Below are positions 10,300 to 63,237 of a DNA stretch of 64,000 nt, in pieces; the stretch's first letter is position 1, and each line of letters starts with the position of its first letter. Below the pieces are notes generated by a model, which searched no databases, was not told the DNA's origin, and worked only from the letters and a program-made list of their open reading frames with translations. The stretch is from the NCBI GenBank assembly GCA_977020255.1, contig CDROCS010001086.1:124001-188000 (forward strand). Reading direction: 5' to 3'. Position numbers and translations under genes: made by a program. The stretch is from Obrimoposthia wandeli. Lineage: Eukaryota.

Positions 10300-10778
10300 A
10301 CTTCGACGGGCTCTTAGACATTTAATCCATTGAGAAGAATGTCAAACAGTTTAGGTTGAATCTCAAGATCGTAATAAAATGGATTTTTAACTTCCTCTTA
10401 CCTTCGCTTGTCTCAGTTTCGTTTTTTATATTTGTAAGTTAATATTGCAATTGACGTTTCCAATCTTTTTTCAAAATTATCAGTTTAATGACCAGGTACA
10501 ACATCAAAAATTAGGTGTATTTTTATCGAAAGAGTCGGATAATTTGTACTACTATCTTTCTAGTCATACTACAATTTTGATGACATTAAACATTTGCCAC
10601 ATAATTTCACTTTTGGGAAAATTTCCTTTTGTGTGGTTTTACTTTTAAATATAATATAAACTGGTAGCTTCTTCCCATCAGCTGTTATGGTAAGTGTAAG
10701 TGTAAAATTCAATTTTTTATACTTTTCACCTATATTAAATCTAATTGGTATATCAAAATTTACTGGAATTTCAACCAT
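10300..10778 (-). pseudogene. pogo/Tigger-family (DDE_1) transposase remnant
   Basis: ORF 10569..10778 reads FTLTLTITADGKKLPVYIIFKSKT, matching the pogo-type motif TVxLxxxADGxKLPPxxIFKxK. MVEIPVNFDIP resembles the degenerate xDETPxxFDMP first-catalytic-D motif. Confidence 0.7.
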
Positions 10779-11192
10779 GTTCTCAATTTAATGTGTGTGG
10801 AGTATGCAATTTTGTGCATGTGTATGCAATCTAATCCACCCCCACCTAAAGGGCGAGAAGGAGGAAAACCCCTACCAATTTTTTGTGTTACTTGAAATGA
10901 AATTTTACTGATAATTTAAAAAGTGATTAAAGTAGACCACAGGAATCCATATTGACCCCGTCAACTTATCGTAGACTAGATTTCAGATAAAACTTTTAAG
11001 TGAATATATGACTGCTATTTTTAAGAAGTAATTAACAGATTTTAGATTAAAAAATTACTACATGTATGCTAAAATGACAAGATAACTAGGTCAGATTTAT
11101 AAAATTTATAGAAGAAAAAAACTGAATTCAAGATAAAATTTATTTCAATACATTTATTAAATAAAACAAATATAAAACACCATATTAGTTTC

Positions 11193-11570
11193 ACTCAAAG
11201 TCCAAAGAGGCTGAATTTTTAGTCATCAGAATAATATCCATTGAGTCGTATTGAAATATTCCATAGTTCTTCGTCTAAAATTGGAGCAATCAAAAATCTT
11301 AGATAATCTCTAAAAGTTAGACTGGAATCAGTTTCAAACTGGAAAAAATTTACTTCGTATGCATAATCAGGTATGTAAAATCCAAAATATATTTTAATTG
11401 ATCAATATCAGATGTGGTTAAAATTTCAATTAAATATTAATTCTCCACTGTGATATTTCTACAGAATTAAAAACACGTATAATTTGATGCCTCTTTAATA
11501 AATTACATGGTTTTCCTTTGAAATTCTTTCTGAATAATAAAAATTTCCTACATATCTCAGAATAGGATCA
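11193..11570 (-). pseudogene. Frameshifted homolog of the unknown ORF at 60788-61153 (ORF D)
   Basis: Minus-strand translation gives GFYIPDYAYEVNFFQFETDSS...IAPILDEELWNIS...SLFGL*, matching GFYIPDYVYEGNSFQLETDPS...IAPILDEELWNIS...SLFGL* in copy 2. Confidence 0.85.
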
Positions 11571-11969
11571 TTCTAAAATAAATAAACTAATTTAAAACAA
11601 TGTTTATAAAAAATACATATAAGATACAAATATTATGAAATAAAAATAAAAAAACTGTTTACTATTTATTACATGTAAAATGAAAGAAACATGTTAAAGA
11701 AAGATAAATAGTTAAAACATAGGGATATGAGCATGTTCATTTTTCCACATAAGTAGCTTTGTTCCAATTTCTTGTAACAATAAAGCCGAATTCTTACAGT
11801 GCATTGCTTCTTTTTCGGAAACGCATTAACGTCAATTTCTGTTCTATATTAATCTAAAAATACTGCATCAGCTCTTAAGATATAAAATTCGTTCTTATTG
11901 AATGTAAAACTTGGAACTGCCTTTTATACTTTTGGTTTAAGATATTGAAAATCTAAAAAATCTTCATAT

Positions 11970-12316
11970 TGAAATTTTAGGAAGTTTTTGTGTTATGGGA
12001 TTTATGAGAGACAAAACACTGTTGAATGAGATCAATTTACCATTTCGAATTCAAATCAGCTCCATACAATCAATCACAGTTTCAAGTAATCTCGTGAAAC
12101 CAATAAATCTTTATAAAACTGCAGAAAAAATGAAAGAATGCATGTTTGAACCTGAATTTTTCCTGTACTCAGTAATTTGAAGTTTACACCGATATGTGTA
12201 AATATATTTTCAAGTGGTAAAGTTAAGATATTATGATTAAGATATTTGGATTAGTAATACACTGTTAAATAAATTTTAGAAAATCAATTTTATTAAATTT
12301 TGTTATCTTTTCTATA
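11970..12316 (+). pseudogene. TBP-like gene, exon 2 only (copy 1), with a frameshift and stops
   Basis: TTTTAG|GA acceptor, then GSFCVMGF...IQSITVSSNLVKPINLYKTAEKMKECMFEPEF. After a frameshift near 12165-12180 it continues LKFTPICVNIFSSGKVKIL, the C-terminal TBP repeat signature (EPExF...IFxSGKV). Confidence 0.85.
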
Positions 12317-12631
12317 AACAAACCCGTTTAAATTAAAAATTGTTTCAAATGATTAATACTATAAATACAGACAATGAAGTGGATCATTTTATTGATGAAA
12401 TTTTTTCTGGAAATTTATTTTATCCCAATTAAAAAATAATGAAACTACAAGACATAATAATGAAATATTGGTTAGATCACATGGTATTCAAGAATTTAGA
12501 AATCAAACGCAAATAAATAAAATTATAGCCAAATATTCATTAATTAATTTTTGTATTTTATCTACAGTAGCTTTTCAATAAAAAACAAAGCTAATATCGT
12601 GAATTCTTACTAGAGTCCATCTACTACTTAA

Positions 12632-14762
12632 CAGTTCGTCGCTGTTTGGGGTGCATTTTGCACCCCAGGCACATTTCAAGTGTTATAAACTTGAATTAAT
12701 CAAACTTTGAGAATTTCTGCTTTATGACTTTTTAAGTTAGACCATTCTACACATCATATCGGAAAGTCAAACATTTTGTAAACTATGAGGAAGCTCAGAT
12801 ATATTTTTATATGTACTGTCGTTTGGGGTGCATTTTGCACCCCAAACAAATATAATGCATTCTTGTTTTTCAAATCAGAAATCTGACTCTTTAAATTTAT
12901 TTTAGGTACCGAATATTACTATAGTACTCAACCAATCAATAAGCAATTATTGATTCAACAAGAATGTAGATAGGTATATATTGGCAACTCTCATGAGCAT
13001 TCGAATTAGTTGCATTATTATTTTCAGATTGCATTCAATTATATTTCATTCTCTGAATTTGCAATATGTTGCGTCAACTACCACGGAGACTAGCTCGTAA
13101 TGATGCCAACAGACTATTGTTTGGCCAAGATATTGATGATGACGCCGACTCAATGCATGATTTATCAGAGGATGATGTTGCAAACAATATCGATCAGAAT
13201 CTTCCAAATAATGGTGATGGCGATGCAGCCTCTCCCGTTGCTGATGGAGATGAACAAGCTGATGACTTTCTAGATGAAGAAGTTTTGCGCAATTTGTCAA
13301 GTGGTGAAAGTGACGAAGATGATGATCCACAACAGCAAAGAGGATTGATTTCTCCCAATGGACAAATATGGACATTGAATCAACCGGCAGCAGTGGGAAG
13401 GCAACCAGAGGCTAATATATTCCGTGGTGTCCAAGGATTTCGTCGTGGTTTGCACCCCGAATCACGATTAGAATCTTTTGAAGTATTCTTTGACAGTTCA
13501 GTTGATTGTGCGATAATGTTTACAAACTTGTATGGTCGCAGATTGGCCCGCGAAAAAGGCGTTAAATGGAAGCAAGTGACTGCAAATGAAATGCGAGCAT
13601 TCATTGGACTTCATTTTCTTGCAGGCGCCCTAAAGGCACATCATCGAGTACTGGAGGAAATGTGGTCGATCGTGATGGTCAATCTCTTTTTAGGGCCACC
13701 ATGAGCTGTCAGCGCTTCAAACAACTGAAGCAAGCATTACGCTTTGACGATCCCATAATGAGGGATAGGGAGGATCCCCTGGCTCCCATTCGTACAATTG
13801 TGCAATATGTGAATGGCAGTCTGGTCTATGCTTATTCGTCAGGCCCATTCATTACTGTTGATGAGCAACTGGTAGAATTCCATGGCAGAGTTCGTTTAAG
13901 ACGTTATATACCTACAAAACCAGGCAAATTTGGTATAGAAATGTACTGGTCCGTGGATGCAGACAACAGTTTCCCACTGCGGTGTTTAGTATACATTGGT
14001 GAGAAGACACTTTTGAGACAAGAGAAAGAAGACTCCCCATCAATTCCGGAAGCCGTCGTCTGGAACATTGCTCGTCCCTTGTTGAACGAAGGAAGGAACA
14101 TCACAGGAGATAATTACTTCTCATCTCTTCACCTATGCCAGAGATTGTTGGAACGGCAGACTACATATGTCGGCACAATGCGACAGAATAAGCGAGAGAA
14201 TCCACCATTAGCAAAGACAACAACTTGACGACACAGGGGTGATAGCATTCACTACTACACTGATGATGCCACTCTTTGCTCCTTTTGTGACAAGGGCAAA
14301 AACCCAGTTTTACTAATTTCAACCCAACATAAAACCCAACAAAATCACCCTGATAGAAAACCAGAAATCGTGATCTTCTATAACAGTACTAAAGCCGGTG
14401 TGGACACCCTTAATAAATTGAATAGGACATTCTCATCGAAGCGCAAGTGTTGCCGGTGGCCTTACTCGATCTTCTTTTCGTTAGCAGATAATGTGTGCTA
14501 TGCTGCCCTGTTGTTATGGAATTCGTCCGAGGTCAACAACGATTCACATTATGCATTCAAAAGAGAGCTGGCATATGAATTGTGTACACCACTGATTCGA
14601 CAAAGATCCACTATCCCCAACCGCCGTAAGACCATCAAAACGGCAATTGAACGTCTTGGTTTACAACCTCCTATGGTGCCACTCACTCGTCAACAAGCAG
14701 TTCGCACTCAGGGAAGGTGCTACATGTTCCCGAGAGGTCCAGACGCAAACAACGGAAAATAG
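12632..14762 (+). mobile_element. piggyBac (PGBD4-like) transposon; left end present, right end not found
   Basis: TTAA at 12628-12631 is followed by CAGTTCGTCGCTGTTTGGGGTGCATTTTGCACCCC. The palindromic motif GGGGTGCA-TTT-TGCACCCC occurs at 12648-12666 and again at 12825-12843. The transposase pseudogene follows. Confidence 0.85.
13066..14762 (+). pseudogene. piggyBac DDD transposase with one frameshift (~13665-13690), one nonsense codon (TGA 14226-14228) and a truncated C-terminal Cys-rich domain
   Basis: Motifs FRATMSCQRFKQLKQALRFDD, ITVDEQLVEFHGR, YIPTKPGKFGI, ITGDNYFSS, TTYVGTMRQNKRE, YNSTKAGVDTLNK. The frame continues in register from 14229 into ORF 14370. It ends QGRCYMFPRGPDANNGK* without the remaining cysteines. 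Confidence 0.93.
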
Positions 14763-27414: not shown

Positions 27415-28069
27415 ATGAAAATAAAGATATTTTTATTGATTAATGGCACGTCAAATTTATATTATTAACAAAAATCTTAGTCTAATCATCAAATATGAAT
27501 ACATATCCAATGTAAATTTTCTAACTAATGATTTAAATGCAAAAAAGAAATTAAATAAACATTCTTACTAATATTTAATTTACATCTTTATTATAAATAA
27601 TATTAACCTACCGGCTCTCCTTGTTGCTAAAAAAATGAAATTTTAATCATTTATGTATGTTAACTAAGCCACACAAAATTGTTTATGAATAATGATTTTT
27701 AAATAATAAAAACGAAAATTTGTATAAATTCTTTAAAAAAATGAAAAATAAAGATATTTTTATAGATTAATGGCACGTCAAATTTATATTATTAACAAAA
27801 ATCTTAGTCTAATCATCAAATATGAATACATATCCAATGTAAATTTTTTAACTAATGATTTAAATGCAAAAAAGAAATTAAATAAACATTCTTACTAATA
27901 TTTAATTTACATCTTTATTATAAATAATATTAACCTACCGGCTCTCCTTGTTGCTAAAAAATGAAATTTTAATTATTTATGTATGTTAACAAAGCCACAC
28001 AAAATTGTTTATGAATAATGATTTTTAAATAATAAAAACGAAAATTTATATAAATTCTTTAAAAAAATG
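27415..28069 (+). repeat. Near-identical head-to-tail tandem duplication, period ~327 bp
   Basis: TGGCACGTCA occurs at 27444 and 27771. The entire unit, including AACCTACCGGCTCTCCTTGTTGC, is repeated with only a few substitutions. Confidence 0.95.
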
Positions 28070-30920: not shown

Positions 30921-32059
30921 TAGTAAATGTCTGTTACAAATTCAACAAGACGATTTTCCAGAAATTTCAAAAGCGCTAAGAATTATGAATCAAGCAATCA
31001 ATCAAAGTGAGCGAATAATAAATTGCCAGTTCACTGTCAAACCCGGTCGCACAAATTTCATCATTTATGTAGACAAGTACGATAGAAGTGTTAGGTTTAG
31101 GAATTGTTAAAAATAAAATAATTAATCGAATTTATAGTGAAATAAGAATCCTTGAAAGCAAGGTTATAAATTAAATAAAATTAAAATTTAGAATTAAATT
31201 GTTAAAAGTAAAAGGAAAATTGAATATTAGGGACCACGAAGGTCGTGTGTGATGTGTAGGTATATATTGAAGTTTAGACTTAACAAAAGGGCCCAAAAAG
31301 ATATAACCCAGAAAATAAGGTTAGTTAGTAAGAAGAAAGAAGCCAATTAATAGAAGATTAATAGAAGATTATTAAATCATTGAGAGAAGATCGGAGTCAG
31401 AATCCATTAGGCCCGAGAAGAAAAAAGAAAGTTGCTGAGTATCTATTAGCGCCACTTAGCGCCAGACAAGCTATCCCGGAATTGTCGAGAAATCTATTAG
31501 AAGCAGCTCTCCGCAAACAGCTGTCTTATCGAGAAAGTAAGAGCACTTAGTTAAGTGATCTCTATTGTTAAATTTCCTAGGAGAAGTTCCCGCCGACAGA
31601 AATCAATTAACATCGTCGCCAAGTCCATTAGTGCCTGTGGAGAGGAGACCGTCGTCAAGAGGTGAGGACTTTGCTTTAAGTGCTTAAGTGCTCTAAATTT
31701 GGAGAGATCAGTATAAAAGGAAATTAACCAAACTCTAGTTTCCAGAGAAAACGAGGAAAACTAATTTGGAAAAATCGGATTGGAACTCGAGAAGAAAAGC
31801 GATCCTACACTGCAACCAGAGGACCGTGCACACACAGATAGTCCGAAAACCGGCCTCTCCATCTAACCAGAGCGAGCCCATTCGACAGTCGTCAAGTCCA
31901 AGAGAACGCAGCAGAGGCTAAAATCGGATCGGAACAATTGGCTTCGTAGAGACTGCGCCTCCAGACCCAGAAATCTCCAAGCAAGGCAACCGCTCTCAAT
32001 AAGACCGAAATCAAGGAACGGACAGACGGGAACGAGGTGAGAGACAGAGTGAGAGGTTT

Positions 32060-32592
32060 AAAATAAGAATCTTGAATTTGATAATAAAGATAAAGATTAG
32101 AATTGATTTTTAAAATAAGAATATTGAATTTTAAAATAAGAATATTGAATTTTAAAATAAGAATCTTGAATTTGATAATAAAGATAAAGATTGGAATTGA
32201 TTTATAAAATAAGAATATTGAATTTTAAAATAAGAATCTTGAATTTGATAATAAAGATAAAGATTGGAATTGATTTTTAAAGTAAGAATATTGAATTTTA
32301 AAATAAGAATCTTGAATTTGATAATAAAGATAAAGATTGGAATTGATTTTTAAAATAAGAATATTGATTTTTAAAATAAGAATCTTGAATTTGATAATAA
32401 AGATAAAGATTGGAATTGATTTTTAAAATAAGAATATTGATTTTTAAAATAAGAATCTTGAATTTGATAATAAAGATAAAGATTGGAATTGATTTTTAAA
32501 ATAAGAATATTGAATTTTAAAATAAGAATCTTGAATTTGATAATAAAGATAAAGATTGGAATTGATTTTAAACAATAAGAATATTGAATTTT
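32060..32592 (+). repeat. Minisatellite: 7 copies of a 73-bp unit with an internal ~21-bp subunit
   Basis: GAATCTTG recurs at 32067, 32161, 32234, 32307, 32380, 32453 and 32526. The period is 73 bp; the first interval is 94 bp because of one extra AAAATAAGAATATTGAATTTT subunit. Confidence 0.97.
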
Positions 32593-34019
32593 GAATAAAC
32601 TGGTAAACTAATTGGAAAGAAACAAATATAAAGTAGAAGGATATTCGAACGATTTTGTAAGTAAATTTTGTAAGAGAAAATTAATAAATTGTTCCGAGGG
32701 TATTGAGGTTTCGAGTAACTACTCTACCAAACCAAATAACTTACATTACCACATTTTAGAGCAACAAGCTCTGTAAACTCATCCCCTATTTTAGAGCAAC
32801 AGCTCTGTAAAATCTATAAATTCAAATTGCCCACAGTTTTAGAGTACGACTCTCACGCCAACCAAACATAAATTAAAATCGATACGTGGTTCATCCCCAC
32901 TGGTGTAGAGACTTACAGAAGTCTTAGGAATTTACTGTATCTTTTTAGAAATACGTACGTAAACGTATTGTTGTGTTTTAGTCTAGTGTGTTACCAATAA
33001 ACGATTTCCTACATTAGAAAACGTTGTTTTAAACCCTTCAGATTAAGAGACGTCAAAACAAACACCTTCAGATAAGTAATTGAGACAGACAACCATAGCA
33101 CTAAGTAGGCCACGACCAACTTTAAGACCTGCTTCTATTAGAACTCACGTTGGGGCCCTCCGCACACAAGAGGATCTATACAAGTCTCGTATAGAAACCC
33201 CAACAGAAGTAGTAATATGTAGATTAGTATTAAATACTCAAAACCTGAAACTTTGAGAAAATGCAGAACATTATTACAGATAAGTGTTTTTTCAATATTT
33301 AGTACAAAATAGAAGCTGAACCACAGACTTCATCCATGAAACATATTGACAGAGGTCACACATTCATTCACCCACTTACACAGATCACAGACAAGCATAC
33401 ATAAACTAGACAGAGTTGCTGAAGTCATCAACAAATAAATTGCAGGAAACAGTCGTCCACCTAGAATCAATGGTTCGGTCAGTTGATCCATTGATTGATT
33501 GGGGGTTCGAGAGTGTCACATCTGTTATCTAGTAGTAGGTTTCGTTCTCCAACCATGAGCCTTCCTTCCACTTTCGGAGAAGGTATTTATGGAGAATAAA
33601 TATTTGCAAAGATATTTGTAAAGATTTTGTAAAAAGAAAATATTGACATTGATGAGCAACCATGGTTGCAAGAGCGTGGGTAATACCACTACATATTATA
33701 ATGATGGGAGTTGGGACCCAGCAACCCCTAAAGTTGTTGACGGTAGAAGGAAACCTGATAAATTGCAAAAGTGTAGTCCAGTCTGAGAGAAACGGTGTAA
33801 GGATAGAAACAGGTGGTGCGTTAATGCATGAGCCTTTACAGCACTATGTGAAGGTAAATAATTCGATAGACAACAAGGACGGCGGATGGGGATGTTTCAA
33901 CCTGGACTTCGATGTCTGGACAGATGACAAGGTTAAATAGGACATATCTTGGGTTTAATCAAAAACCAGAAATATCCTACTAGCAATAATCGTTTTTTAT
34001 TATTTACGACACTAAAAGA

Positions 34020-44929: not shown

Positions 44930-45633
44930 TAAGAAAGGATTTAAATAAACTAATAAAGCACTTATTTTAATACAACTTATGTATTTTTTCCGTGATTCAA
45001 AGCTTACAAAATCTTGAACTTACTTCGATATCGGTTACATTTTGCCGCTAAATGAAAACAATATACATTTATATATACACTTCAATTCAAAAAATGTATT
45101 TTCATGCTTTCAACGTTATTATCTAAAATTATTAATATTGGGAAAAATATGAAAATAAAAGTAGCTAGAGCCGCTGTTATTCAACCTTTTCGAGACTGTA
45201 ACCCATTTTACTTACTGGAACAATGCAATGTACCACTTATGTTAATAACCGAATAAGTATGTAATTCAAATTAATTGTCGGTTAAATAAGAAAGGATTTA
45301 AATGAAACTAAGAAATGCACTTATTTTAATACAACTTTTGTATTTTTTCGTGATTCATAGTTTACAAAATCTTGAACTTACTTCGATATCGGTTACATTT
45401 TGCCGCTAAATGAAAACAATATACATTTATATATACACTTCAATTCACAAAATTTATTTTCATGCTTTCAACGTTATTATCTAAAATTATTAATATTGCA
45501 AAATATATGGAAATAAAAGTAGCTAGAGCCGCTGATTTCAACCTTTTCAGGACTGTAACCCATTTTATTTACTGGAACAATGCAATGTACCACTTATGTT
45601 AATAACCGAATAAGCATGTAAATCAAATTAATT
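44930..45633 (+). repeat. Head-to-tail tandem duplication, period ~357-358 bp
   Basis: TAAGAAAGGATTTAAAT occurs at 44930 and 45287, and CTTCGATATCGG at 45023 and 45381. Scattered substitutions separate the copies. Confidence 0.95.
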
Positions 45634-52312: not shown

Positions 52313-52489
52313 AGATTATCATGTTTTTGCTTCCCTCATGCATAGCTTTCATGTGTTTTTTATTTTTATTTTTTGGACAATCTGTAAATATTTTAGTAAA
52401 TATTTAGATTATCATGTTTTTGCTTCCCTCATGCATAGCTTTCATGTGTTTTTTATTTTTATTTTTTGGACAATCTGTAAATATTTTAG
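52313..52489 (+). repeat. 84-bp tandem duplication with a 9-nt junction insert
   Basis: 52313-52396 and 52406-52489 are identical; the spacer TAAATATTT copies the adjacent end of the unit. Confidence 0.92.
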
Positions 52490-54569
52490 CATATTATTTC
52501 ATTTGTAATTCAGTCATTAATTTTATGTAATTTTAAATTTTATAAATATAAATATATTACTAAAATACTCTTTTTAAGTTTAGTATCTATTTTTTAATGA
52601 AGTAAATAAAATGATTAACTTTAAAACTTAGATTACAACGGTGCTGGATTAGAATGTGTTATTGAGTTCAAAAAAGCTTTAATTGAGAATATGTCTATAT
52701 CAGTTTTAGTATATTTCAAAGGTGTAGATTGTAGATTGTAGTTTATTTCTATATACTTCTGTTTAAATCAAATAGTATTAAACAATTTTTGTGTTATGTT
52801 TTCAACTGACATTTAAATAAAACTTAATAATCTACTTACTTGTACATATTTGCTTATGTTCTGAATAAAATTAACATTTAAAATATAAAAACAACACAAA
52901 AAATAATATTTACCTGTGAACGAAGCTAAATGGAAAGAAACATCAATTTCAACAGTCTTCTTCTTTTAGTAATATCAAATTAAATCCACGTTGAGTTAAT
53001 GTACAATTTGAAATAGAAGAACATACTCAAACACCAGGGATTTTTAACAGATTTGTTTAACTATCCATTCAAAATAAAAAAGTAAAATAGTAACCAAAAA
53101 AAAAATGTTTATTTTTTTACATCATTTTCAACAATCACGTGATGAAATATATAAAAATATTAAAGACACCTCTCCGTATTGAAGCTTTGACATTTGGAGA
53201 ACTTATAAGAAAAAATTATCGACTTTTCATGAAATCAAAATATTATATGTTGAATAAAGCTACCGTACTTTCAAATTATTTATTATCTGATAAATATGTG
53301 TAGAATCTGACATGGGAGATTTTAAAGAAATGTGACACACTGGGTATTCCCGAAATATTTGAGTGGGAATTTTTATTCGGCATGGGAAGCTTTGTTTACG
53401 TCATCATTTGATATTATATTATTCAGAATGCAAAAATCACTCAATTGGCATATCTTCTTTCAAATAATCAATGTTCGTTGTGGAAAAAAATCCCATACTT
53501 AATTATAAATTGTATCTAAAATAATATTTGACATGGGAATATTTTCCAATCTGAACAATGATCTGTTCATTTATTTTACTAATAATTGACTTTTATTGAT
53601 AATTTACATTCCAAATGTATCGCATATTGAGCGATTTCTGAAATCTGGATTAATAAACGGTATAACACTGAATGTCAAAATTCGACCACACAACAAACTT
53701 TCTGTACTTAATATCTCTGAATGGTATGTATGCTAAACAGGAAAATATATTTAAAATATCTTCGCGCATCGGGGGGGGGGTGACCTATTGCCTTTAGTCG
53801 AAGTCCCCACTCCCCCCTACTAGAGAGTCAACATTTTTGTCTGGGAATCCGCAACTATATTTTTGGCTTTTTAGTAGTATAGTTTAAAACTGTTCAAACG
53901 AATATGCATTATCCTCCTTTTTATTATAAAAAACTACACTCCTTTATAAAACCAGTAAAACTTATAAACAATCGTCATTAGGAATAGTGAAATGGAGAAG
54001 TTTATGAGGGTTGGCTTTCGATATTATCAAAAGATTTTTTCACATCAAAAGAGGTTTTAGAAAAGAACCGTCTTGGGTTTCTATGGATTGAGTTAACATT
54101 GGAGAGTGATGAAAATTCTGAAAACTATAAAAAATACAAAAAATACATGTTGCTCTATTTGAAAGATTGGGGATTAAGAACTCAAAGAATTCAATGAATA
54201 AAAATAGCATATAAAATTTTGTTTTCAAAAAAACTATTTATTTGAAAAACATGCTTTACTCAAATAAACTCTATTAATTATAAACCAAAAATAGGGTGTT
54301 TTATAACATAGGTACAAGAAAACTCTTACCGCAGTTTTAATGAAAATTGTATTAATAAATTATTATTATGAATTTGTTGTATTTTTAACATATAAAATGA
54401 AGTAATGAAGAAATTGCATCGGTTATTTCTTTTGCATTAGCATTTATTTGTTAAAGAGCAAAGTGAATAGTTAATGAAAAGTTTAAGCAGACTTTGTTGA
54501 ACTGCAAAAGTCGACCTTTTACAAACTTTGGAAGTGTTTCCGTATGAATCAGTAAAAAATCATAGTAAA

Positions 54570-58099: not shown

Positions 58100-58759
58100 T
58101 TCTCCTGGGTCGATTGCTCTTAAAAACGGAATTGTTACCTGTCATGGAGTCAAAATTCTGTTATTCTTTATGGTAGCTATTCTTACTTCTTTTCTTTGTT
58201 TCCTTCTTAACAAGAACCTTTTCATTAACTTTTCCCTCTTCTTTCATTATATATATTCTCTAACTTTGCAGCTGTGATTTGTTGGGTCTTTATTACGTCT
58301 CGAAGATATTTTTTATTATTTGTTGTTTGATGCTTGATTTTTTACTTCTATTCTAAAATTTATTTCAAACGGTGAAAATTCAATTTGTGGCAATAAATCG
58401 TGCAATCATTTTCCTGGGTTAGAATACGCTATTGTCGTAACAATCATATATCTTACCACGCGTATAACTCTTTCTGCTAAACCGTTAGTTTGATGTTGAT
58501 ATGGTGCTGTAAGTTAAAGTCCAATACCAAATTCTCATAGCCAATTGTTAAAATAATTTCCCGTAAATATTCGTCTTTTATCTGTTAAAATTCTCTTAGG
58601 TTTCTTAAATTTATATATCTAATTTGTCTCAGGTGCTTTAGTAATTGTTAATTCATCTTCTTTTGTAGTTGCTGGTAGTGATACCAGTTTATTAAATCGA
58701 TAGATTACTATCAAGATATATTTCATTTTATATCTTCCATCCTACATGTGAGCTATATC
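58100..58759 (-). pseudogene. Gypsy integrase core remnant (3' part, left of the inserted element)
   Basis: The minus strand reads DIAHM...KYILIVIYRFNKLVSL, KPKRILTD and LTAPYQHQTNGLAERVIR. Confidence 0.85.
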
Positions 58760-58978
58760 AGTAGGTGGATGTGTCCAGTCTAATCCACACTCCCCCACTG
58801 TCCTTTAAAACCGCGCATGTGTGTGGAGTGAAATTTCGTGCATGTGTGTAAAGTGAAATTTTCTACACCCCAACACTCAAAAAAAAACTAATTAACCCCA
58901 TATTACACCCTTTAAATTTGAAAATGTCATAGTGCTCCCCAAAGAGTGAGGAAGGATTTGCTACAATTTTGGGTAATT

Positions 58979-59329
58979 ATGCAGGAATATATCATAGATG
59001 TTGAGGCTTTCGTTAACAATAATGGTGATTATATTATAAAAGAATTATGTATTATGGATGTATGCGACATTTTTCATCCTTTGCATTTCATTTTTCATAT
59101 AGATATCCTCTTTAGAAGTTTAGATTATAAGAAAGATTTTATTAATTTCTATCTAACTAATTATTTTCATTTATTAAAATGGAAAGAAGGTCATAAGGCT
59201 TTTTGTGAAATATGTATTTTCGATAAAGTAAAATCGAATTTTGACATTGATAATGAAATTTTTTATGTTTTAGATGGAATGGACGGCAAAAAGTATAAGA
59301 CTTTTAAAAAATATTTTCTTTACCCCTAA
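58979..59329 (+). CDS. DEDD/DnaQ-like small exonuclease-fold protein, probably C-terminally truncated
   Basis: The first in-frame ATG is at 58979 (the track starts at GTG 58946). IIDVEAF...IIKEL is an ExoI-like DxE motif, followed by HFIF...YLTNYFHLLKWKEG. The stop coincides with the point where homology to copy 1 begins. Confidence 0.5.
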   Translation: MQEYIIDVEAFVNNNGDYIIKELCIMDVCDIFHPLHFIFHIDILFRSLDYKKDFINFYLTNYFHLLKWKEGHKAFCEICIFDKVKSNFDIDNEIFYVLDGMDGKKYKTFKKYFLYP

Positions 59330-59468
59330 TTTTTCCAGAAAATATTTCGCCGGAAAGACGATCCACTTCATTGTCTTTATTTGTAGTATTATTCATTTGA
59401 AACAATAAGTTTAAACGGGTTTGTTTATAGAAAAGATAACAAGATGTAATAAGATATATTTTCTAAAA

Positions 59469-59924
59469 TCAAATCAACAATGTCTGGATAATCAAATTTT
59501 TCAATCCCAATATCATAACTTTACCACTGGAAAATATATTTAAACATAGCGGTTTAAACTTCAAATAACTGAGAGCAGGAAAAGTTTCTGGTTCAAACAT
59601 GCATTCTTCTTTCATTTTCTCTGCAGTTTTAAAAAGATTTATCTGTTTCCCAAGATTAGCCGAAATCGTGATTGATTGTATTGCAGTGATTCGAATTCCA
59701 AATGGTAAATTGAACCCAATCATTGGTATTTTGAATCCCATAACACGACAATTTCCTAAAAGAATTCAAAATGAAAATAAAATAAAAAACTAACCTGTAG
59801 GAAAAATAACAACTGTGAAATTGTCAAACTTTTCCACATATTGTCTCGGCTTTCATGCATTGAATGGTAAGTACGAAACATCATCTTCTGTTCTACCTTT
59901 ATAATTTATATTTACGAGTTTCAT
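59469..59924 (-). pseudogene. Two-exon TATA-binding-protein-like gene: complement(join(59469..59755,59795..59924)); in-frame TGA at codon 24 and a probable 3' frameshift
   Basis: Spliced product: MKLVNINYKGRTEDDVSYLPFNA*KPRQYVEKFDNFTVVIFPTG|NCRVMGFK...IQSITISANLGKQINLFKTAEKMKEECMFEPETFPALSYLKFKPLCLNIFSSGKVMILGLK. Both TBP repeats are visible (IFPTGxxxVMG and FEPETFPAL...IFSSGKVMILG). The ORF track mislabels exon 2 as '+'; its ATG is the reverse complement of CAT at 59739-59741. Confidence 0.88.
59756..59794 (-). other. 39-nt GT-AG spliceosomal intron in the TBP-like gene
   Basis: Donor ACAG|GTTAGT, a T-rich body and acceptor TTTTAG|GA. It contains in-frame TAG and TGA, and its removal restores IFPTGNCRVMG. 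The acceptor is conserved in copy 1 (~11965-11972). Confidence 0.75.
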
Positions 59925-60009
59925 TAGACTAAAATTGTATTCTGTCAAATCTTCTTTATATATGTCTGAACCTGCTTTTTTATTGCACGTTTCTTGCAAA
60001 CCTATTATA

Positions 60010-60160
60010 ATTGGAAGATATATTTCTTCCAATCAAATTTGATTTTTAATATGGATTTAGTCCAATCAAATTCAATGCTTTAGTTATATTAACCAATGAG
60101 ATTCATGTCTTTGTTAGAAATTAGTATAAAAGAATGCGCTATTGGAGGACAAATCACAGT
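60010..60160 (+). promoter_or_regulatory. Divergent intergenic promoter: three CCAAT boxes, TATA box, CAGT initiator-like motif
   Basis: CCAAT at 60029, 60062 and 60093, inverted ATTGG at 60010, TATAAAAG at 60125-60132, CAGT at 60157, and the ATG of ORF C at 60163. Confidence 0.6.
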
Positions 60161-60162
60161 AA

Positions 60163-60645
60163 ATGCATTCATATCAAAGACAATTATCAACGATGGACGA
60201 TAGCCAACGGATATTAAGCGGTGACGAAGATATAGAAATGTTTGAAGAATCGGATAAGGATATGTATAAAGAAGTGAAACAATATTTCAAATACAAAGTC
60301 AGATTCTTGAAGAAGGCTCAACTGATTGCTTTAGTAAATCCTGTGACAATTGAAAGAAGAAAGTTCAGCTATTATCTATCAAATATTCAAAGACCAGATT
60401 TGCAATATCTTAAACAGAAAGTTGAAAAGACAGTTCCGAATTTTACTTTCAATAAGAACGAATTTTATATCCGAGGACCTGATGAAGCATTTCTAGATGA
60501 CTATGGAAGATATGTTGATATTGATGCGTTTCCGAAAAAGAAGCAATGAACTGTAACAATTCGACTGTATGGTTACAAGAAAGATGAAATGGGAACAAAG
60601 TTGCCTATGTGGAAAATTGAAGGTGCTCATATTTATATGATTTAA
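60163..60645 (+). pseudogene. Unknown ~160-aa protein (ORF C) interrupted by TGA at 60547-60549
   Basis: The track ORF of 128 aa continues in frame past the stop as TVTIRLYGYKKDEMGTKLPMWKIEGAHIYMI*. Copy 1 has TGC at the equivalent codon (FPKKKQCTVRIRLYCYKK). AATAAA lies at 60657. Confidence 0.75.
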
Positions 60646-60787
60646 TTATTTCATGTAATAAATTGTAATCGGTTTTACTATGTTTCTTTCATTTGGCAAT
60701 TAATAATCAGTTTTATTTTTTAAATATTTGTATCTTATATATTTTTTTTTATAAACATTGTTTTTTAATCAGTTTCCTTATTTTAGA

Positions 60788-61153
60788 ATGGATAAGAGAT
60801 GTGTAGCAAATTTTTATTATCCAGAAAAAATTTCAAAAGGAAAACTATGTAATATATTAAAGAGGCATCAAATTATACGAGTTATGAATCCTGTGAAAAT
60901 ATCAAAAGTGGAGAATAAATATCTCATCGAAATTTTAACAACATCTGATATTGATCAATTGAAAAATATTTTGGGATTTTACATTCCTGATTATGTATAT
61001 GAAGGAAATTCTTTCCAGCTTGAAACTGATCCCAGTCTGGATTTTAAAGATGATCTAGGATATTCGATTGCTCCAATTCTAGATGAAGAACTATGGAATA
61101 TCTCAATGAATATTTTGCTGATGACAGGAAAATGCAGCCTCTTTGGACTTTGA
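60788..61153 (+). CDS. Unknown ~121-aa protein (ORF D), open in this copy
   Basis: Open from ATG 60788 (the track starts at 60758 on a non-ATG codon). It is conserved in copy 1 (11193-11570) and followed by AATAAA at 61181. No recognisable motif. Confidence 0.65.
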   Translation: MDKRCVANFYYPEKISKGKLCNILKRHQIIRVMNPVKISKVENKYLIEILTTSDIDQLKNILGFYIPDYVYEGNSFQLETDPSLDFKDDLGYSIAPILDEELWNISMNILLMTGKCSLFGL

Positions 61154-61667
61154 GTGAAGCCAATATGTTGTTTTATGTTTAATAAATGTTTTGAAAAATA
61201 ATTTTGACTCGTATTTTGTTTTTTCTCCTCTAAATTATATAGATCTAATTTTCTCTTATAAATCTGACCTAAATATCTAACATGTAGTAATTTATTAAGC
61301 TTTCTTAAAAATAGTAGTAATATATTATTTGAAATCTCGTCTGTGATAAGCCGTCGTGTCCAATATGGATTCCCGTGGTCTTCTCTAACCACTTTGGAGA
61401 TTGGTGGAAAATTTCAAAGTAAAATTTTAAAAAAATGTGGGGTGGACCTCCACCCTTTCCTCCTTTAGGTGGAATAGAGACACACATACACGAAATTTCA
61501 CTCCACACACATGCACGGTTTTAAAGGACTGTGGTACCCCCCCTATTCGTGGCTTCTTTTAATTTTTTCTCTACACACATGCACGAAATTTCACTCCACA
61601 TACATGCACAGTTTTAAAGGATAGTGGGGGGAGGGGGTGTGGATTAGACCAGACACATCCACCTACT

Positions 61668-62600
61668 TATATCGCGAACAATTTCATATAAAAAATTATT
61701 TAACTAATGGAATAAATATTTATTTTGTTCTGCTTGTTTAAATTGTTCTTTCGCTACAATTTACGCATTTTGATTTGCTTTTTTTCTTGAAACATTCTTT
61801 TCAAATATAAATTATCCTTCATATATTTAAAACATTTTGCATTCTTAGGTGACAAAGATATTAGTGAATTTCATTAATAATTTCATTAGCGTTCTTCAGA
61901 GGTATGAAAATTAAATCTTTAAAATTTTGTTCAAAATAAAGAATATCCTAACAAAGTTTACGTTTTTCTTTCATCTGATAAAACCAACTTATTTTACATT
62001 CTTCTGATAAATCCTTACTTTTCATTTGGAGGAAAACATTCATTTCTTTCACATGAATATCTTCTTGTTGTATTTGTCTTATCTTACTCAAGAAAGTGTC
62101 TTCATTTAGTTAGTAAATATATCGTATCTTAGATCTCTTGTCTTGTACATATATGTATATATTATTGAATACTTCCCTTAATAATTTATAACGTTCGTCT
62201 TGGTTCTAACTATAAACAAGGATATCATCCTTTGAACAGCAAACCATTCAATATTTTAAGCATCACACTCTGAAATGTTTTTGATATTGTAGCCAACTCA
62301 AATATTAACTGATTGAAACAAAATTGTCCCAGTTTTGTACTGAAGACTATTTTCTAGATGTAGTTGGTAATAAGTTTGTTCAATATATAGTATTGTAAAT
62401 ATGTTTTCATCACCCAGACAATCGAAGAAAGGTTGCCACAATCCCAACAAAAACATGCTTCTGACTGGAGTTCTTCACTTTGTGTGACACGTAATTGTTT
62501 GGCTAAGTTAAATTTCTATTTGCTTTAAGGAAATTTTCTGGCATTTTTCTTCTATTATTTTGGTTTTGTGTGTATTTATATGTATTTTATCTTCTTTTTT
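61668..62600 (-). pseudogene. Gypsy pol remnant (5' part including the integrase zinc finger), right of the inserted element
   Basis: The minus strand reads EIINEIH*YLCHLRMQ (HxxxxH zinc finger, ~61830-61890) and YEIVRDI, which abuts the TSD and continues as DIAHM on the other side of the insertion. Confidence 0.75.
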
Positions 62601-63065: not shown

Positions 63066-63237
63066 AGTGTCGGTTCTAAAACAATAGAACATAAAGAACT
63101 ACCCCCGTCTCCCGAACAAGGAACGAGGAACAAAGCACATCTGGAATTCGCTTAGTCATTCAGATGTGCTTTGTTCCTCGTTCCTTGTTCGGGGGGCGGG
63201 GGTAGTTCTTTGTGTCTATTGTTTTTGAACAGACACT
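63066..63237. repeat. 172-bp near-perfect palindrome (~77-bp arms, short loop)
   Basis: AGTGTCGGTTCTAAAACAATAGAACATAAAGAACTACCCCCGTCTCCCGAACAAGGAACGAGGAACAAAGCACATCT (63066-63142) pairs with 63162-63237 with about six mismatches or indels. Confidence 0.95.

Follow-up and report, generated by a model that had tools for sequence, protein, structure and literature searches.

The question raised by this locus is whether a short, broken TBP-like gene in the genome of Obrimoposthia wandeli is the remnant of a host gene or a component of a mobile element and, in the latter case, what the element may use it for. In the window (the whole 64,000-nucleotide stretch that was analysed), it is a broken copy of a real TBP-like gene, which runs on the minus strand from 59924 to 59425 (Table 1) and is referred to here as the mini-TBP gene. 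Its product matches the Pfam TBP family (PF00352; E 1.2e-12, 48 bits versus a cut-off of 22.9) through the second repeat only; the best matches among solved structures are archaeal and eukaryotic TBPs, and the Atlas clusters matched are generic TBP ones only. The original prediction, namely a minimal TBP starting at an ATG at 59924 without N-terminal extension, containing the motifs VIFPTG, FEPETF, and NIFSSG, and inactivated by a TGA (located at 59855–59853), agrees with the sequence in each of these points. A 39-nt intron at 59794–59756 and a second lesion, a frameshift near 59495, were added; with the internal TGA and this frameshift, the window copy is dead. Once the intron is removed, the spliced product is 153 aa long, i.e. 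longer than the ~140–150 aa first estimated. Intact copies, which had been proposed as worth seeking, were found in the genome: natural copies with both exons open encode 153 aa and end at the stop at 59427–59425. The C-terminus placed at this stop is thus borne out by these copies and not by the other copy in the window, which is too decayed to show a C-terminus.

The intron is predicted from several features. Its length ranges from 35 to 44 nt, whereas exon 1 has a constant length of 130 nt (24 of the 30 top copies, those that parsed); the 13 extra residues that it would encode are missing from intronless relatives, and, when read through, it forms the sole stretch of the predicted model with a pLDDT below 50. 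No intron-skipping joints were found in the best 15 of 174 matches from four sequencing runs of unrecorded kind and one sample, which cover the gene as contigs and say nothing on expression.

The origin from a mobile element, also proposed initially, is confirmed by the identity of the element: the 2,908-bp unit that carries the mini-TBP gene is an internally deleted Maverick/Polinton, with the inverted ends (AG..CT) and 6-bp target duplication that are hallmarks of this group. In longer copies, the TBP gene is followed, in this order, by a small ORF, an A32-like ATPase gene, a core-like ORF, an integrase gene, capsid-like genes, and a protein-primed PolB gene. Homologues of the PolB, integrase, and ATPase genes are present in longer copies of the window's own family (family A), and all three are deleted from the window copy; in a metagenomic relative (locus L056), Pfam DNA_pol_B_2, rve, and Pox_A32 were matched. 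ORFs with the size and place of the major capsid, minor capsid, and protease genes are conserved and have no Pfam match, and the labels capsid, core, protease, and DEDD are those that we presume for the element ORFs. The truncated ORF at the 3' end of the window copy is likewise taken to be DEDD-like. For orfB, no Pfam match was obtained, and its Atlas matches (0.87–0.88) to Nucleocytoviricota clusters, one of which has Pox_I3 in 12% of its members, are a lead only. The genes orfA and orfB are tandem paralogues in the family of the window and are represented by a single copy in the other families.

Table 1. Features of the Maverick/Polinton copies in the window (positions are those of the window)
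Feature	Position	Strand	Remarks
Deleted Maverick/Polinton copy	58760..61667	-	2,908 bp; termini AGTAGGTGG...CCACCTACT; maps to longer copies, junction near 59315
Left target-site duplication TATATC	58754..58759	+	6 bp
Right target-site duplication TATATC	61668..61673	+	6 bp
Terminal inverted repeat, element 5' end	61569..61667	-	End repeats 87.5% alike
Terminal inverted repeat, element 3' end	58760..58862	+	End repeats 87.5% alike
Truncated ORF with D-x-E start	58979..59329	+	From far end of full element; no Pfam match
5' piece of ~90-aa ORF	59315..59396	-	In longer copies, upstream neighbour of packaging ATPase; interrupted here by internal deletion
TATAAACA box	59422..59429	-	Overlaps TBP stop codon; 33 nt upstream of the ATG of the next ORF (59396)
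Mini-TBP exon 2	59425..59755	-	Contains strand S5, a short linker, and the entire second repeat; frameshifted near 59495
Mini-TBP intron, predicted	59756..59794	-	39 nt, GT..AG, phase 1
Mini-TBP exon 1	59795..59924	-	130 nt; most of reduced first repeat; premature TGA 59855–59853
Canonical TATA box TATATAAA	59955..59962	-	Ahead of mini-TBP gene
Putative divergent mini-TBP/orfB promoter region	60010..60145	.	Five CCAAT boxes; TATAAAA at 60125 (+)
orfB, broken	60163..60639	+	Weak lead: viral single-strand DNA-binding proteins
TATAAACA box	60750..60757	+	Ahead of orfA; 38 nt upstream of orfA ATG
orfA, frameshifted	60788..61179	+	orfB paralogue, 27–30% identity
Another copy of this element end, more decayed	10760..12413	+	TBP remnant ~11975–12320; ~80–83% identical

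Several other repeated sequences were noted in the window. Just after the first Maverick remnant is a decayed transposase gene of the piggyBac type (12640–14762; Pfam DDE_Tnp_1_7, E 5e-38), accompanied by a short subterminal motif that is repeated, and a near-perfect 172-bp palindrome (63066–63237; 88% arm match) is located in what is apparently another repeat. Tandem duplications are present at 27418–28069 (unit 327 bp), 32057–32598 (unit 73 bp), 44930–45633 (unit ~357 bp), and 52313–52499 (unit 93 bp). A repeat that contains long CACAC-type arrays, which read as HHTTP repeats, is inserted in or beside several Maverick copies (L033, L037–L038, L042, and L193).

Four Polinton families with a mini-TBP gene (A, B, C, and D) were identified in the O. 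wandeli genome. The gene is intron-bearing in family A and intronless in families B and D, where it encodes 144 and 154 aa, respectively; in family C, it contains a 36-nt intron at the same position as that of family A and of unrelated sequence. Family D elements are 11.7 kb long, with PolB frames of >1,200 aa and end repeats of ~600 bp that are as much as 97% alike. The two unrelated short introns occupy one codon position (window 59794–59756; L151:3139–3174), at which intronless family B reads ACAGGTAAAT (L137:4054–4064), resembling a ready splice site; judging from these sequences, either one old intron was lost or two were gained at one site. A search of the 1.35-Gb genome returned 30,226 first-look candidate sites, which are not copy numbers, and the 150 sites that were scored are 89–100% identical.

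Relatives were also found outside this genome. With a threshold of E 1e-10, the profile search yielded 624 proteins, the best 120 of which are 131–213 aa long, mostly 144–163 aa. Another element gene lies beside the TBP gene in 35 of 42 metagenome loci, the remaining seven being shorter than 2 kb. An almost complete Polinton is represented by L056, and both repeats of its TBP match Pfam. No relatives were found in scans of IMG/VR with the TBP alignment, capsid, and ATPase. These data establish the mini-TBP as a standing part of a Maverick/Polinton clade. One Polinton of this clade also carries a gene for a ubiquitin-conjugating (E2) enzyme (L056:222–719), behind a TATAAAC box of the kind described below. 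A wider group of divergent TBPs of 160–220 aa (P0238, P0243, P0248, P0255, P0267, P0268, and P0280) shares the second-lobe signature and keeps the first-lobe length; the genomic context of these proteins may show the origin of the mini form. A fifth, distant Polinton family (family E; L173:7300–L174:9400) has different ATPase, capsid-like, and PolB genes and AT-only upstream regions; no TBP was found in its partial copies of up to 12 kb by a stop-to-stop search with no filter.

For 115 non-independent pairs from 41 sequences (dS 0.1–2.0, >90 codons), the median pairwise dN/dS was 0.25 and the highest value 0.42; dS between the four families is near or at saturation. These values indicate that the mini-TBP is under purifying selection. 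In a quick tree of 85 sequences, in which families A and C were represented by exon 2 only and two host TBPs were partial, a set of 32 mini-TBPs (SH-aLRT 99) takes in the four families and is nested in a group of 49 apart from all cellular TBPs; the family A branch is rather long. The host's own TBPs join the eukaryotic TBPs (SH-aLRT 98), and the main one is closest, among two-repeat animal proteins, to entries from a ribbon worm, a flatworm, and a mollusc. An AU test, in which long branches are involved, rejected a clade of element and host TBPs (p 1.7e-83). A recent retro- or pseudogene of the host TBP, decaying and without a role in the element, would account for the broken state of the window copy; this origin had been named as the outcome that a phylogeny might reveal, but it is refuted by the separate placement of host TBPs with eukaryotes and of element TBPs with metagenomic mini-TBPs, by the AU test, by a dN/dS of ~0.25, and by the presence of the gene in four families, so that its probability is negligible. 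The host genome contains several TBP paralogues (L093–L098), of which two are adjacent and divergently oriented and two are divergent and intronless, with a much changed DNA face.

Both predicted structures adopt the TBP saddle, the absence of which had been named as an outcome that would overturn the original interpretation. The AF2 model of an intact relative (pLDDT 96.5) matched TBP with a VIA Z of 13.7 (rmsd 2.7, 149 aligned; next fold 6.6), and that of a family A copy, with X at the stops (pLDDT 91.8), matched with a Z of 13.4 (rmsd 2.6, 148 aligned; next fold <7). The shortened first and preserved second repeats that had been noted in the sequence reappear in the two models: the second lobe is complete, whereas the first keeps its strands, has an H1 of at most four residues, and lacks H2. 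No long helix is present between S5 and S1', and an alignment gap of ~15–20 residues lies at H2; more distant relatives retain the first-lobe length. Three of the basic residues that contact TFIIA, TAF1, Brf1/2, and Mot1/BTAF1 sit on H2, according to Ravarani 2020 (PMC7221094).

Residue equivalences to yeast TBP were taken from sequence register and not from coordinates, with numbering according to two papers (PMC12529657, Table 1; PMC1636458). Among 120 relatives, the acidic stirrup is nearly invariant (first Glu in 116 and Asp in 4, Pro in 119, second Glu in all 120), and equivalents of F116, F190, and F207 are each present in 120 of 120. The reported absence of an F99 equivalent was upheld, as neither candidate column has a conserved Phe (0/120 in column 25 and 15/120 in column 29); a Tyr of family A in one of these columns may be an aromatic stand-in. 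The DNA face is remodelled in a conserved manner: V71 is replaced by Asn in 117, V122 by Arg in 119, T124 by Met in 120, N159 by Ser in 117, V161 by Thr in 106, I194 by Arg in 119, V203 by Cys in 120, and L205 by Asn in 120 of the 120 relatives. I194, V203, and L205 are positions of the altered-specificity mutant TBPm3 (PMC1636458). Family A has Ser at a DNA-face position that is Arg in 119 of 120 relatives, and this substitution and the long branch suggest that its mini-TBP may be altered or drifting.

In the regions upstream of the genes of these elements, a variant TATA sequence, TATAAAC(A), is conspicuous. A set of 34 dereplicated metagenome loci (106 kb) contains TATAAACA 71 times versus 22.9 expected, and it is the top 8-mer, simple and local repeats aside; in the host DNA of the window, it occurs 8 times versus 9.1 expected. 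The 5' T is needed (109 occurrences of TATAAACA versus 24, 17, and 12 with A, C, and G, respectively), and the four NGTAAACA words occur 7–16 times each. The box is strand-specific and lies at a TATA-like, fixed distance from the ATG: 38 of 83 TATAAAC[ACG] sites are 30–50 nt upstream of an ATG, versus 2–15% for eight control 7-mers, and 30–39 nt is the commonest spacing from the next ATG (30/83 sites). Because this distance is fixed and that to the nearest stop codon is variable (~-100 to +360 in most cases), the box appears to be a promoter element rather than a poly(A) signal.

Its distribution follows gene type. The box precedes 42 of 51 structural, packaging, and DEDD-like genes (ATPase, core-like, penton-like, pX-like, capsid-like, and DEDD-like) versus 2 of 41 TBP and SSB-like genes, whereas a canonical TATA box precedes 5 and 20 of these genes, respectively; since the classes were drawn after the upstream regions had been seen and the genes are related, the Fisher p of 7e-15 overstates the contrast. 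The integrase genes, placed in neither class, have the box in two of seven cases, and exceptions within the classes are the penton-like genes (2/6 with the box) and orfA of the window, which has the box though it is an SSB-like paralogue. Each of the four TBP-bearing families contains 10–13 boxes versus ~3 expected, whereas the six longest of the ten family E loci contain 16 versus 16.0 expected, none at promoter distance (all ten loci: 16 motifs over 68 kb). What ties the protein to the box is a correlation, for which the control is a single distant family in which no TBP was found.

These observations suggest that the mini-TBP, in its intact form, is a late-gene switch that reads TATAAAC(A) before structural and packaging genes, 'late' being deduced from gene type; we put the probability of this reading at roughly 0.6. 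The cascade would start at canonical promoters, from which host TBP and CCAAT factors would express the mini-TBP, SSB-like, and polymerase genes with Pol II, the polymerase that the intron implies. Next, the mini-TBP would use its remodelled DNA face to read TATAAAC(A), preferring TATAAACA over TATAAAAG, and its conserved Glu-Pro-Glu stirrup to bring in host TFIIB and Pol II, thereby turning on the structural genes. Use of host TFIIB is proposed because no TFIIB match was found among the scanned proteins of L056 and family D, a set that does not comprise every small ORF and from which a very divergent TFIIB could escape. Without the first-lobe H2, the protein would escape control by TAF1, Brf1, TFIIA, and Mot1/BTAF1 and act outside TFIID. 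One lobe of TBP binds the TATA box's downstream half; this lobe is the most altered in the mini-TBP, and it is in this half that the box leaves the consensus (C at position 7). Counting against the switch, the C-lobe is also remodelled, yet the box is canonical in its upstream half; the possible alteration or drift of family A likewise weighs against it. The more specific proposal that this Maverick/Polinton clade runs an early-to-late cascade through one 150-aa TBP re-tuned to TATAAACA, using host TFIIB and Pol II, appears to us slightly better than an even bet.

Among the functions initially suggested, altered specificity that drives element genes fits the TATAAAC(A) box, whereas use as a decoy is better treated as a competing explanation. 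A decoy or repressor would occupy TATA boxes or tie up TFIIB, damping host or early genes, and TATAAAC(A) would be read by host TBP or another factor. The nearly invariant stirrup, the loss of activator-facing surfaces, and a box that is canonical but for one position would all suit such a role, but the conserved remodelling of the DNA face suggests that the mini-TBP has its own preferred sequence, the box tracks the TBP-bearing families, and C at positions 5–7 is disfavoured by a yeast TBP mutant (PMC1636458); we regard the decoy as unlikely. Nearly the same low probability is assigned to a mini-TBP that acts as a general, Mot1-resistant booster of all element promoters, with the box read by a host forkhead factor or another element protein. 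The forkhead core is RYAAAYA, to which ATAAACA conforms, and several element ORFs have no Pfam match. Viral TBPs have also been proposed to evade Mot1 (Ravarani 2020, PMC7221094). The requirement for the 5' T and the strand-specific, TATA-like placement of the box speak against a booster of this kind.

If TATAAAC(A) served polyadenylation or termination, or simply arose from conserved codons, it would be uninformative on the TBP. The box is indeed often near a stop codon in compact gene arrays, some copies encode Y-K-Q or I-N-N, and one box of L056 has no downstream gene. However, distances to the stop are scattered whereas those to the ATG peak, several boxes lie within the upstream ORF, at a depth of 40–100 nt, so that cleavage there would truncate it, and the penton-like S-I-N codons use ATA AAC in 4 of 4 cases versus 27 of 157 I-N pairs overall (small numbers); this explanation is very improbable.

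A dedicated TBP with a matching box would provide a testable switch for the structural genes of Mavericks/Polintons, relevant to capsid gene expression in animal elements and to whether these are still virus-like. The mini-TBP also shows how far a TBP can shrink and stay conserved: it is the smallest two-lobed TBP among those examined and, if the cascade reading is true, one half of an orthogonal TBP–promoter pair. The elements would in that case retain a regulated virion-making programme, driven by a natural altered-specificity TBP that is perhaps beyond the reach of Mot1/BTAF1 and TAF1. With ~30,000 first-look sites in the 1.35-Gb genome, gene and box appear to have spread very widely.

In the literature, including PMC11161782, PMC10748475, and bioRxiv 2026.06.19.733378, no work devoted to a Polinton TBP or to TATAAAC(A) was found, although subscription papers, Repbase, figures, or supplements may hold such work. 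In the available text of Starrett 2021 (PMC8502044), a Maverick/Polinton (adintovirus) TBP appears as a label in the legend of Fig. 5, which gives no analysis, reduced fold, promoter box, or clade-wide conservation. The gene is real and conserved, and the Polinton TBP is apparently uncharacterised as a transcription factor.

Compared with cellular and archaeal TBPs (PF00352; PDB 7egb_P, 1ytb_A, and 2z8u), the mini-TBP shares the two-repeat saddle over its whole length, equivalents of F116, F190, F207, and N69, and the acidic TFIIB stirrup. It differs in its length of ~150 aa, the loss of H2, an H1 that is short at most, and the absence of a conserved F99, so that three of the four canonical Phe residues are kept and the H2 basic patch is gone; N159 is Ser, and polar or charged residues occupy V71, V122, I194, and L205 (117–120 of 120). 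Identity is 22–32%, and the mini-TBP is encoded by a mobile element. The TBPs of giant viruses and poxviruses, which include its best BFVD matches, similarly lack the first-lobe regulator signature, but most such viruses encode a TFIIB themselves and show variation in the stirrup acids, whereas in the mini-TBP the stirrup is nearly invariant, a whole helix is gone, and no TFIIB was found; Polintons are not mentioned in the available text of that survey (Ravarani 2020, PMC7221094).

The TBPs of beta- and gammaherpesviruses (vTBPs: KSHV ORF24, EBV BcRF1, and HCMV UL87) read TATT late promoters (PMC12529657). Like the mini-TBP as proposed here, they are TBP mimics whose DNA face is polar and which have a TATA variant of their own before structural genes, working with host Pol II; KSHV ORF24 is also polar at V122, T124, V161, and L205 (Table 1 of the same paper). 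ORF24, however, has 752 aa and several domains, belongs to a complex of six proteins, retains F99, contacts Pol II directly, and, by prediction, does not bind TFIIB (same source), whereas the mini-TBP is a bare core of ~150 aa that retains the TFIIB stirrup, and the end-to-end 11.7-kb element has no room for a six-protein set. Shared descent beyond the fold was not seen between the two. The herpesvirus vTBPs are the closest working analogy for the mini-TBP, which is not a member of that group.
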